Assembly: GCA_963729045.1 (NCBI GenBank)
Contig: CAVSMN010000007.1
Span: forward strand, 64,001 to 128,000
Reading direction: 5' to 3'
Length of the DNA: 64,000 nucleotides
Source: an uncultured Nitrososphaeraceae archaeon
GTDB lineage: Archaea > Thermoproteota > Nitrososphaeria > Nitrososphaerales > Nitrososphaeraceae
Shown: piece after piece, positions 38,407-42,775 of the stretch
How the letters are laid out: each line of letters opens with the position of its first letter
Numbering within the stretch: the stretch's first letter is position 1
Translations under genes and position numbers: made by a program
The notes under the pieces: generated by a model
What the model saw: the letters and a program-made list of their open reading frames with translations, nothing else
Database searches by the model: none
What the model was told of the DNA's origin: nothing

Positions 38407-38844
38407 ATGGCTACTCGATTAAGAAAAAGTAGAAAACAGCGCGGAAGTCGCTTCTGCGGATGGGGCCAAATTGGTCAACATAGAGCTTCGGGAAGTAGAG
38501 GAGGTGTAGGAGGCGCTGGAAAGCACAAGCACTTCTTCATCAGAACACTTAAAGAGGAACCGAATCATTTTGGGCATGAACAATTTCATGCATTAAGACC
38601 AAGCGATTCTTTAAGATGGATAAATCTTAAAGACTTGAATGAGTTGGTAAAATATTCAGAAACTAGTGAAGATGGTAAGGTCATACTTGATTTAGAAAAG
38701 TTAGGGTATGATAAGGTATTGGGTAATGGAGCCATAAACTCTGCCCTTACAGTTCGGGTAAAAAGGATCTCAGACTCTGCCAAGAACAAAATCACAGCAG
38801 CTGGAGGAGAGGTGCTAATTTTAGATGAGCTCAGTACAGAATGA
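38407..38844 (+). CDS. rpl15: 50S ribosomal protein L15 (uL15)
   Basis: RGSR.CGWG..GQHR.SG.RGG.G.AG, KVLGNG, KI.AAGG. Confidence 0.97.
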   Translation: MATRLRKSRKQRGSRFCGWGQIGQHRASGSRGGVGGAGKHKHFFIRTLKEEPNHFGHEQFHALRPSDSLRWINLKDLNELVKYSETSEDGKVILDLEKLGYDKVLGNGAINSALTVRVKRISDSAKNKITAAGGEVLILDELSTE

Positions 38845-40276
38845 TGGTATATTTAGAACAATCGTAAAGACAATCTCCCCTGTTATCCCACAAGTTGAGA
38901 AACCTAAAAAGAAAATTACTCTAACTAATAAATTGATATGGACTGGCATTGCTATGCTTATATACTTAGTAATGGGCCAGGTTCCATTATTTGGAATAAT
39001 TATCGATCCCGCAAATGATCCATTGGCTTTTGCCAGAGTAATCTTTGCTGCCCAACAGGGAACTTTGTTGGAGCTTGGAATTGGTCCTATTGTTACTGCT
39101 GGATTGTTAATGCAGTTATTGAAAGGTTCGGATATATTAAAACTAAACTTTAAGGATCCTAATGATAGATCCCTTTTTACATCTGCTACAAAAATAGTGA
39201 CAATAATTGTAATCGTTGCAGAAACACTACTGTATGGTGTAAGTGTATATGGAGGTGCTACTCCGTCGGGCCTCCACTTGGCCGTATTAATAGCGCAGTT
39301 GATGGCGGCGTCCATCATAGTCATGTACCTTGATGAATTGGTTCAGAAAGGATGGGGGCTTGGCTCAGGAATCAGTATATTCATTATGGCCGGGGTCGCG
39401 CAAGCGATAATGTGGAGTCTCTTTAATCCCATACCAATACCTGGTGGCACTGAACCTAGTGGCTTGATACCCTTCATGATCACAAGCGGAATGGAGGGTA
39501 ATATAGGAGACGCTATACTCCGTGCGTCACCACCTGCACCTGTACCAAATATGCCCAGCCTCTTTGGATTTGGGATGACCGCGGGGATATTGCTGCTATT
39601 GGTCTACGTTCAGGGTATACACGTGGACATACCTATAGTATCGACCCGGTATCGGGGCTTTACTGCGACATATCCCATCAAATTACTTTATACGTCCAAC
39701 ATCCCCGTGATTTTGGCGTCTGCGCTTTTGGCGAACGCGCTTTTCATAGGGCAAATGCTCTGGGTAAATTACAATCCTAACAACGATAATCCTGCCTTCA
39801 ACTATATAGCGCAGTACGACGCGCAATCGCAGAAACCTACTGGAGGTCTGTTTTATTACATTACTGCGCCTAGATCCTTTGAGGCTGTCGTAGCGGATCC
39901 CGTTAGAGCGGTTGTATACGTACTGTTCTTGACGACGATTGTTACCATCTTTGGCCGGCTTTGGGTGGAGCTAGGTGGACTCTCTGCGAAGGCGGCGGCG
40001 AAGAACCTATTGGATGCGGATGTCCAAGTACCTGGTTTTAGACGGTCGGAAAGTTCAGTGGAATCCCTGCTGAACCGGTATATCCCGTCTGTGACTATAA
40101 TAGGAGGAGTAATAATCGGGTTATTGGCTTCTGTATCAGATTTATTCAATGTTTTCGGAACTGGAATAGGTTTGTTACTGATGGTGGATATACTTGTGAA
40201 CTACTATAACTTGTTGGTTAGAGAACAAGTCGACGTTCATATGCCAAAATTGGCTTCCTTATTAGGACGCACATAG
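38825..40276 (+). CDS. secY: Preprotein translocase subunit SecY
   Basis: ELGIGPIVTA, KGWGLGSGIS, YPIKLLYTSNIP, PGFRRS, GTGIGLLL. Confidence 0.98.
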   Translation: MSSVQNDGIFRTIVKTISPVIPQVEKPKKKITLTNKLIWTGIAMLIYLVMGQVPLFGIIIDPANDPLAFARVIFAAQQGTLLELGIGPIVTAGLLMQLLKGSDILKLNFKDPNDRSLFTSATKIVTIIVIVAETLLYGVSVYGGATPSGLHLAVLIAQLMAASIIVMYLDELVQKGWGLGSGISIFIMAGVAQAIMWSLFNPIPIPGGTEPSGLIPFMITSGMEGNIGDAILRASPPAPVPNMPSLFGFGMTAGILLLLVYVQGIHVDIPIVSTRYRGFTATYPIKLLYTSNIPVILASALLANALFIGQMLWVNYNPNNDNPAFNYIAQYDAQSQKPTGGLFYYITAPRSFEAVVADPVRAVVYVLFLTTIVTIFGRLWVELGGLSAKAAAKNLLDADVQVPGFRRSESSVESLLNRYIPSVTIIGGVIIGLLASVSDLFNVFGTGIGLLLMVDILVNYYNLLVREQVDVHMPKLASLLGRT

Positions 40277-41727: not shown

Positions 41728-42775
41728 ATGGAATTTAATCTTCCTCAATTAGACAAATTAGTAAAGATAAATGATGGAACGTCCGATGAGAAATTTGGAT
41801 ATTATCCTAATAATAGACCCATTGCCCAATTATTAAGTTATGGACTGATTTTGTTGGACAAACCACCTGGCACTACAAGTCACGAAATTGTTTCATACGT
41901 TAAGAAAATACTTGGTTTGGAAAAAGCTGGACATAGTGGTACCTTGGATCCAGGGACTACTGGATTGTTGCCTATTGGTTTAGATGAAGGAACAAAAATA
42001 GTCCCAGGTACTACTCATGGGGCCAAAGGAATATGTTGCCTTGGCTAGACTTCATAGTCATGTTTCCAATGAAAAACTTGGTCAAGTACTGAAGGAATTT
42101 ACGGGTCTTATATATCAAAAACCACCCCAAAGATCATCTGTAAAACGTGAGACACGCATTAGAACGATTTACGAATTGGAATTACATGATCAATTTGATC
42201 GATTGTTATTATTAAGAACAGTATGTGAGTCTGGAACATACATTCGTAAACTAATATATGATATAGGGGAAGTTCTTGAAGTTGGTGCTTCAATGATCGA
42301 GTTACGGAGGACTAAAGTTTGTAATTTTGTAGATGAAACCGACTTTGTTAGACTACATGATCTGGTAGATGCATTTCAGTTGTATAAAGAATCCGGCAAT
42401 GAAGAGAAACTTCGACGAATCATGCTTCCAATTGAAATGGCTATGACTCATATTCCAGCAATAACTATTAGGGATACTGCAATTGATGCTCTATGCCACG
42501 GCGCACAGTTAGCACTGCCTGGCATAGTCTCAATTCCTCAAAACCTAAAAAAGGGTGATTTAGTAGGTATCTATTCACTAAAAGGAGAAATCGTCGGACT
42601 GGGTATTTCTGTATTAGATTTTGATGAATTTCTTAGTAAAAAGAAGGGAATTTGCTTCCAAATAAAGCGGATCGTTATGAAACCAAACACATATCCCAAA
42701 TTTTGGTCCACATCCGACACTAATGCGAACCCAGCCAACCATAATGTAACCAGTGATGAATCGATCTTTACCTAA
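41728..42775 (+). CDS. cbf5: H/ACA pseudouridine synthase Cbf5; +1 frameshift near 42008
   Basis: LDKPPG.TSHE, AGHSGTLDP, QKPPQRSSVKR, SGTYIRKL, PUA domain. Confidence 0.95.

Follow-up and report, generated by a model that had tools for sequence, protein, structure and literature searches.

A native, genus-wide tract of genome-rare synonymous codons within secY of an ammonia-oxidising archaeon

How does an essential gene come to change its codon usage part of the way along, while the protein it encodes stays ordinary, and what keeps such a change in place? The question is raised by secY in a stretch of 64,000 nucleotides from an uncultured Nitrososphaeraceae archaeon (assembly GCA_963729045.1, contig CAVSMN010000007.1, positions 64,001 to 128,000), which we call the window. 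The gene (38825..40276, plus strand) appears in the list of open reading frames (ORFs) as a single open frame of 483 codons. In that one frame its product is matched by the Pfam profiles SecY (E 6.4e-63, residues 80-461) and Plug_translocon (E 5.8e-13), which identifies it as a SecY/Sec61-alpha translocon subunit and bears out the intact, in-frame SecY described in an earlier reading of the letters alone (the original prediction). Ribosomal-protein-like genes lie upstream, and the 5' end of secY overlaps the 3' end of an L15-like gene (38407-38844) by 20 nt. The host genome comprises 22 contigs and 2.85 Mb with 32-35% GC; since it encodes archaeal AmoA (Pfam), the host is an ammonia-oxidising archaeon, with traits reminiscent of Candidatus Nitrosocosmicus. 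The segment in question, hereafter the tract, spans codons 146-424 of secY (39260-40096, approximately 280 codons or 0.8 kb) and covers the hydrophobic segments from the fourth onward. The tract is native, vertically inherited secY sequence. As for its composition, the explanation we favour, with slightly less than even confidence, is that a new synonymous equilibrium was gained in the ancestor of the genus and has been kept since by selection on a bulk property of the mRNA.

We first describe the change itself. In the tract, 22 of the 28 Ala codons are GCG (the others being three GCC, two GCT and one GCA) and 5 of the 9 Arg codons are CGG; in the remainder of secY, GCG accounts for 0 of 12 Ala codons and CGG for 0 of 5 Arg codons. 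The hand counts of the original prediction were thus reproduced exactly. Among 2379 crude ORFs of the genome, GCG makes up 9% of Ala codons and CGG 4% of Arg codons, so that both are rare in the usage of their own genome, and their frequencies in the tract depart from this background with binomial P values of 2.2e-18 and 1.7e-5, respectively. The GC content of third codon positions (GC3) reaches 0.534 in the tract, as against 0.269 and 0.356 in the 5' and 3' parts of the gene, respectively, and CpG dinucleotides number 53, 5 and 5 in the same three segments (observed/expected 1.02, 0.36 and 0.89). Fourfold degenerate sites stand at an equilibrium of approximately 50% GC in the tract and approximately 20% next door. 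The codon moves involved are Ala to GCG, Arg AGR to CGN and especially CGG, and Leu TTR to CTN, and on the coding strand third positions of the tract hold G at 0.30 and C at 0.23.

To place these figures in a wider frame, secY of the window was compared with secY of 25 further genomes, giving 26 loci of the genus. These fall into subclade A (15 pooled loci), which is divided into the near clade A1, to which the window belongs, and A2, and subclade B, divided into B1 and B2. GC3 of the tract exceeded that of the 5' part in all 26 loci (differences of 0.04 to 0.27), by at least 0.05 in 25 of them and by at least 0.10 in 19. Among 40 loci of other genera and families, a difference of at least 0.10 was reached only once (median 0.02), and in 11 additional families of the order the values ranged from -0.04 to +0.04. 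The use of the two marker codons is graded across the groups, as listed here for the tract and the flanks, respectively.

A1, near clade: GCG share of Ala codons 0.61 and 0.04; CGG share of Arg codons 0.42 and 0
A2, rest of subclade A: GCG 0.41 and 0.15; CGG 0.28 and 0
B1: GCG 0.19 and 0.06; CGG 0.30 and 0.04
B2: GCG 0.09 and 0.13; CGG 0.17 and 0.02
Other AT-rich genera: GCG 0.10 and 0.14; CGG 0 and 0

Replacement of AGR by CGN in Arg codons of the tract is genus-wide. Together with the graded use of GCG and CGG, this indicates that the feature arose on the stem of the genus and was strengthened toward the lineage of the window. A block common to the whole genus is old, native and maintained, and is neither imported DNA nor an assembly error. 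In the near clade, where the effect is strongest, the preference is also markedly asymmetric: pooled GCG:GCC is 0.61:0.10 and CGG:CGC is 0.42:0.01. As for the other codon families, G and C are about equally frequent in Gly, Pro, Thr and Leu (CTN), and Val and Ser favour G over C by roughly 2:1.

Subclades A and B differ neither from each other nor from other AT-rich genera in the GC content of first and second codon positions of the tract (GC1 and GC2), or in how much of the tract consists of Gly, Ala, Arg and Pro. The raised GC1 and GC2 that the tract shows within the window sequence are due to this part of the protein having such a composition. The lineage-specific shift is therefore purely synonymous, as the original prediction had suspected.

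The internal structure of the tract and its surroundings, all on the plus strand, is as follows.

39155..39259, plus strand: trough of AT-ending third positions before the tract (codons 111-145); GC3 pooled over subclade A is 0.15-0.19 in 10-codon bins over codons 111-140
39260..40096, plus strand: the tract (codons 146-424), with GC-rich synonymous sites in an ordinary amino-acid sequence; break at codon 145|146
39260..39424, plus strand: sub-island 1, the strongest (codons 146-200); fourfold GC 0.45-0.51 in subclade A, from 40-codon sliding windows
39290..39310, plus strand: synonymously conserved island of 21 nt (codons 156-162, IAQLMAA)
39425..39544, plus strand: dip 1, a loop region (codons 201-240); fourfold GC 0.32-0.38
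39545..39784, plus strand: sub-island 2 (codons 241-320); fourfold GC 0.48-0.52
39785..39904, plus strand: dip 2 (codons 321-360); fourfold GC 0.38-0.40
39905..40084, plus strand: sub-island 3 (codons 361-420); fourfold GC 0.43-0.51
40085..40114, plus strand: return to AT-ending codons, where the original prediction had set the 3' edge (codons 421-430); pooled GC3 0.04 at codons 426-430

The two edges differ in kind. At the 5' edge, GC3 pooled over the 15 loci of subclade A rises from 0.23 (codons 141-145) to 0.51 (codons 146-150), least-squares fitting places the break at codon 145|146 (nt 39260), and a two-breakpoint fit returns codons 145 and 197 with a mean GC3 of 0.54 between them. The boundary is aligned with the reading frame to within approximately 5 codons genus-wide, subclades A and B sharing the codon at which the rise occurs, and sliding GC3 has its minimum immediately 5' of the rise in all loci of the genus. 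The 3' edge is soft, since beyond the trough at codons 421-430 pooled GC3 returns to 0.36-0.50 up to the end of the gene. Of the two limits originally drawn, the 5' one thus stood as a sharp edge at 39260, while the 3' one proved to be only a local trough. Within dip 1, Ala230 and Ala238 are almost never encoded by GCG.

The composition has been kept while the sites themselves changed. Two loci of subclade A differ, on average, at 0.54 of the fourfold sites in the tract and at 0.50 and 0.49 of those in the flanks. Compared with the window, fourfold sites differ by 0.63-0.68 in deep members of subclade A and by 0.68-0.77 in subclade B, where the saturation value calculated from third-position frequencies is approximately 0.74. 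Elevated GC3 in the tract was nevertheless kept by every lineage despite this near-saturation. Parsimony counts for the tract gave 53 GC-to-AT and 47 AT-to-GC changes in the near clade, and 49 and 72, respectively, on the remaining branches within subclade A; by our rough estimate, decay from a GC of 0.5 toward the flank value of 0.2 would show about four GC-to-AT changes for each AT-to-GC change. Balanced counts, together with the rise of GCG toward the tips, indicate a standing force that favours G and C at synonymous sites of the tract.

Nothing comparable exists elsewhere in the window or in the genome, as had been supposed for the window. The longest GCG run among the 2379 ORFs belongs to secY (13 of 15 consecutive Ala codons), followed by two ORFs on other contigs which are GC-rich over the whole gene (10 and 8) and by an ORF of a GC-rich block on contig C10 (7), while ordinary genes score at most 6. 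Similarly, among ORFs with at least 12 Ala codons, secY has the highest GCG fraction (0.55, the next being 0.35). In 600-nt windows across the genome the tract ranks fourth among CpG-rich regions, the three ahead of it being a 6-kb block and two further regions on other contigs, all of them GC-rich. The remaining GC-rich ORFs are, unlike secY, GC-rich along their entire length, and judged by eye from their translations they look like accessory genes (non-ribosomal peptide synthetase-, hydrolase- and alcohol dehydrogenase-like); the rest are artefacts within rRNA-like regions or repeats.

Two kinds of GC-rich region met in this survey deserve a description of their own. The 6-kb block (G000:C10:159401-165300) reaches a GC of 0.61, with a maximum of 78 CpG per 600 nt, where the genome as a whole has 33% GC. 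It contains ORFs of 1166 codons (GC3 0.71) and 278 codons, of which the larger resembles, by eye, an adenylation enzyme or a non-ribosomal peptide synthetase; the block was probably acquired or is a contaminant. Three further regions (G000:C12:212601-218300, C12:366301-371800 and C20:175501-181100) reach a GC of 0.57-0.58 and contain identical spurious ORFs. They look like three copies of an rRNA operon, a number that is unusual for this kind of archaeon.

In summary of the observations, the shift is regional and not site-specific, asymmetric with respect to strand and codon, unique in the genome, and persistent through near-saturating turnover. What force could produce this? We propose that in the ancestor of the genus the synonymous sites of the tract reached a different compositional equilibrium, which would then have been strengthened in the subclade of the window, and that the force was probably natural selection acting on a bulk property of the tract message. 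A long block of genome-rare, G-ending, CpG-rich codons is predicted to raise the folding stability of the mRNA by approximately 30%, and runs of five or more T (T5+) are nearly absent from the tract in the subclade of the window. Elongation or the fate of the mRNA would then probably be altered across the segment encoding hydrophobic segments four onward, and SecY output or membrane insertion might thereby be tuned, the gene being translationally coupled to ribosomal-protein genes. We consider selection on such a property of the mRNA or of translation more probable than GC-biased gene conversion. In its favour are the codon- and strand-specific asymmetry toward G, the frame-aligned edge fixed throughout the genus, the uniqueness of the island in the genome, and the special character of the gene as a coupled translocon subunit.

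A known phenomenon with some of these traits is that of conserved rare-codon clusters in coding sequences (Chaney et al. 2017, PMC5438181). They resemble the tract in consisting of codons rare in their own genome, in lying within domains and in conserving rarity or composition over codon identity; a fixed position in homologues, as such clusters have, is seen for the tract among the loci of its genus. Unlike such short clusters, the tract is approximately 280 codons long, is confined to one genus, consists mainly of GCG and CGG, and uses codons with dedicated tRNAs.

Two other causes were set aside. That the codons are simply optimal was rejected, as the adjacent ribosomal-protein genes use GCG 0-1 times each; the neighbouring kinase-like genes are alike in this. 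The number of T5+ runs per tract is 0.1 in the near clade and 2.3 in other genera, while the 5' part keeps 1.0; avoidance of terminator-like oligo-T runs was not retained as the cause, for the 5' part is spared and the drop follows automatically from GC3.

Several results weigh against selection on the message. i) Within the tract, per-site GC3 shows no correlation between subclade A and subclade B (r 0.115 and 0.172, P 0.16 and 0.15, permutation within amino acids), while the flanks show a correlation (r 0.28 and 0.48). ii) The flux counts given above come from our own parsimony reconstruction, which is biased under skewed composition, making flank counts unreliable and counts near 50% GC the least biased. 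iii) Decoding of the tract need not be slow, as GCG and CGG each have a dedicated tRNA gene, tRNA-Ala(CGC) and tRNA-Arg(CCG) being present in one copy each. iv) Membrane topology as such does not bring GCG with it: GCG makes up 0.105 of Ala codons in 173 polytopic ORFs and 0.088 in 1619 ORFs without hydrophobic segments, and within the polytopic ORFs it is 0.106 inside and 0.105 outside hydrophobic segments. v) The link of GC3 to hydrophobic segments of the tract is weak (rho 0.16; 0.51 vs 0.42, P 0.055) and has the opposite sign in the flanks. vi) Predicted folding of the tract in three species was no more stable than that of synonymous shuffles (z -0.35, -0.54 and -0.34), and alignment folds compared with column shuffles gave no consistent tract signal on either strand. 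vii) A block required for SecY biogenesis should recur elsewhere, and this one is confined to a single genus. To these must be added the density of informative sites, described below.

Two observations stand beside these points. The site-specific synonymous signal between subclades in the 5' part of secY exceeds that of the tract (r 0.28-0.48). In addition, of the eight ORFs that follow secY in GCG richness and were checked by Pfam, six encode polytopic membrane proteins. Genes with GC3 of 0.40-0.42 and GCG at 0.23-0.35 of Ala codons (G000:C6:21263-22225, C10:75980-76870, C15:85212-85862 and C20:50937-51521) encode a cytochrome oxidase subunit I-like protein, cytochrome b, AmoA and a CLC channel; their use of GCG is well above the genome mean and far below that of secY.

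The rival that survives best is GC-biased gene conversion or another fixation bias linked to recombination, in which a long-lived hotspot of exchange within the genus, with biased repair of heteroduplexes, would have produced the tract without any function. We regard this as possible, although rather unlikely. The change is indeed regional, non-site-specific, and affects all kinds of synonymous sites including first positions of Arg and Leu codons, and the strength of the bump differs among clades. Among the nine closest loci, informative sites number 141 per kb in the tract and 43-100 elsewhere, and site incompatibility is 0.425 in the tract compared with 0.30-0.38 upstream, in the 5' part and downstream; the short 3' part, however, reaches 0.49, and incompatibility is high throughout the locus. 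Similarity is also mosaic. Locus L004 is only 0-3% diverged from the window over 38750-39350, which includes the 5' part of secY, but 6-11% diverged deeper in the gene and 3-9% in the flanking genes, and these sequences suggest a recent exchange between the two lineages, with one end near 39350.

A link between recombination and GC3 has been described in bacteria (Lassalle et al. 2015, PMC4450053). The likeness of the tract to GC3 enrichment by GC-biased gene conversion in prokaryotes lies in a regional rise of synonymous GC with the protein unchanged, no site specificity, and somewhat more diversity and mosaicism; the tract departs from it in the excess of G over C in Ala and Arg codons, the frame-aligned edge fixed across the genus, and its occurrence as a single genomic island. 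Conversion would be expected to act symmetrically on the two strands, which the ratios for GCG:GCC and CGG:CGC in the near clade contradict, and to leave sloping shoulders, whereas the 5' edge is sharp to approximately 5 codons and fixed genus-wide. Moreover, no gradient runs along the tract, GC1 and GC2 are unshifted, and the tract is the sole such island in 2.85 Mb. Biased conversion is not known to have been demonstrated in archaea, although no search was made on this point.

A local mutational bias without any fixation bias, such as strand-asymmetric damage or repair tied to transcription or DNA structure, is improbable. It would account for the excess of G over C on the coding strand, for the higher turnover in the tract and for the absence of site specificity. 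However, the AT-rich 5' and 3' parts and the neighbouring genes belong to the same transcript and are free of the effect, the boundary lies at a codon and not at a feature of the transcript, and the asymmetry between G and C is limited to Ala and Arg codons.

The possibility that the tract embeds a second element, be it an overlapping frame, a structured RNA in sense or antisense, or an array of binding motifs, is very unlikely. It finds some support in the island at 39290-39310, where synonymous change is 0.20 of that expected among nine representative loci of subclade A (5th percentile of permutations 0.33) and which is the only synonymously conserved island within the tract; further, one alignment-fold window per strand near the 5' edge deviates from its shuffles (z -2.65 and -3.67). 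The island forms no hairpin better than those of shuffles. Against an overlapping gene, no alternative frame is open across the tract in any of 25 loci of the genus when the five other frames are considered: the longest open stretches span approximately 95-170 codons, and their extents vary by locus. Synonymous divergence is not lowered (0.54 vs 0.50), and the Rfam search gave only a chance match to nadA (E 0.82) under the gathering score. Local folds at both edges are unexceptional compared with shuffles (z 0.07, 0.11, -0.55 and 1.27), no k-mer was enriched beyond codon use in six species (maximum mean z 2.0), and repeats within the tract are limited to short two-copy matches. Synonymous-constraint elements, such as overlapping genes and RNA structures, lower the synonymous rate and fix particular bases. 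The tract is like them in showing, over a delimited stretch, a codon choice at odds with that of the genome, and unlike them in that its individual synonymous sites change freely and what stays constant is the composition alone. Of the second layer of information that was originally suggested, a weak form thus persists, namely that composition is maintained, while the folded RNA, the overlapping ORF and the repeated motif were not found.

Two sequence features were noticed in the course of these comparisons. The first 10 nt of the island (39290-39299) are repeated exactly at 39806-39815, both copies encoding Ile-Ala-Gln. Outside the tract, on the minus strand at 38924-39121 (secY codons 34-99), the alignment of 15 subclade A sequences folds at -18.0 compared with -5.5 for column shuffles (z -6.9 against this crude null), with z -3.2 in the next window, which may reflect either a conserved structure or an antisense RNA.

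It is likewise very unlikely that the tract is an old foreign patch, imported by homologous recombination from an unsampled relative of higher GC and still ameliorating, which was the first explanation offered by the original prediction. Mosaic genes with imported segments that have not ameliorated do show abrupt changes of composition and codon usage within the gene, and the tract shares with them an abrupt shift within an essential gene, here with a sharp 5' edge; amino-acid identity between subclades is also slightly lower in the tract (0.78 vs 0.83-0.88). What it lacks is phylogenetic discordance, a donor, patchiness and decay. The tract tree was built from the protein, using tract columns only, of 66 sequences representing 18 genera of the family and five outgroups. 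The genus is monophyletic in this tree (100*) and in the flank tree (98*), as is subclade A (95* and 94, respectively), and the genus stem is proportionate, at 0.308 of 9.95 in the tract tree and 0.189 of 6.56 in the flank tree. Compared with 40 secY genes from outside the genus, nucleotide identity is 0.55-0.65 in the tract, with no outlier, and 0.59-0.72 in the 5' part, while third positions at identical residues agree at 0.31-0.46, which is the chance level. GC-rich relatives within the family use GCG at only 7-8 of 21-32 tract Ala codons, so that they too differ from the codon usage of the tract. No relative was found in the viral contigs and plasmids searched. GC1, GC2 and amino-acid make-up are unshifted, segment-wise amino-acid identities are unremarkable (the tract protein is 87-99% identical within the subclade), substitution counts are balanced without decay, and GCG climbs toward the clade of the window (0.09-0.19, then 0.41, then 0.61). 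The relatives sharing the bump are exactly those close, AT-rich ones named in advance by the original prediction as speaking against import.

Two mobile elements were considered in the same context. Co-conversion with an intein or homing element was rejected, as, among the listed reading frames that contain the secY matches in 121 genomes of the family, the full-length hits carry no extension the size of an insert. A diversity-generating retroelement was set aside in view of the identity of the tract protein within the subclade.

Finally, an assembly chimera or an artificial recoding, which only the compositional jump itself could suggest, has a negligible chance of being correct, as the tract occurs in 26/26 assemblies of the genus including the single-contig genomes G012, G015 and G080, and as independent contigs bridge the 5' edge in three studies (X1 39199-39368, X3 39199-39364 and X5 39107-39357) and the 3' edge in two (X1 39941-40137 and X10 39996-40260). 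The bridging contigs come from public runs of independent studies and extend at least 31 nt on each side of the edge; contigs of libraries labelled as RNA cover the tract and serve as bridging evidence only, not as evidence of expression.

Two observations concern the surroundings of the tract. In codons 1-7 of secY (38825-38845), which overlap the L15-like gene, synonymous change is strongly reduced (ratio 0.20), as expected from overlapping frames and translational coupling. Further downstream, ORFs at 41728-42048 and 42017-42775 overlap. The first resembles the N-terminal part, and the second the C-terminal part, of what we take, from its motif, to be a single pseudouridine-synthase-like protein, and the arrangement may reflect a frameshift, a programmed shift or an error of sequencing near 42017-42048.

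Abrupt shifts of codon usage within a gene are routinely taken as imported DNA. Here, the trees, the search for a donor, the amino-acid make-up and the direction of change say the opposite, and an essential gene has kept a foreign-looking synonymous island of 0.8 kb throughout the history of a genus amid turnover of its sites. This calls for caution in the use of composition-based detectors of horizontal transfer and of chimeras. Our full-text literature search found no codon island in secY and no codon-usage study of this group. The tract offers a natural experiment on whether selection can act on the composition of a coding sequence as such, rather than on particular sites, and on whether GC-biased fixation acts locally in archaea.

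If selection on the message is indeed the cause, it may tentatively be proposed that the tract is a genus-specific regulator of the translocon located in its coding sequence, which the cell would read as elongation speed, ribosome spacing, mRNA lifetime or freedom from termination at U tracts. It would then be, to our knowledge, longer than any other conserved block of non-optimal codons in an essential gene of a prokaryote, and one in which composition and not sequence is conserved. Such a block would set the amount of SecY and its insertion relative to the co-transcribed and translationally coupled ribosomal proteins.

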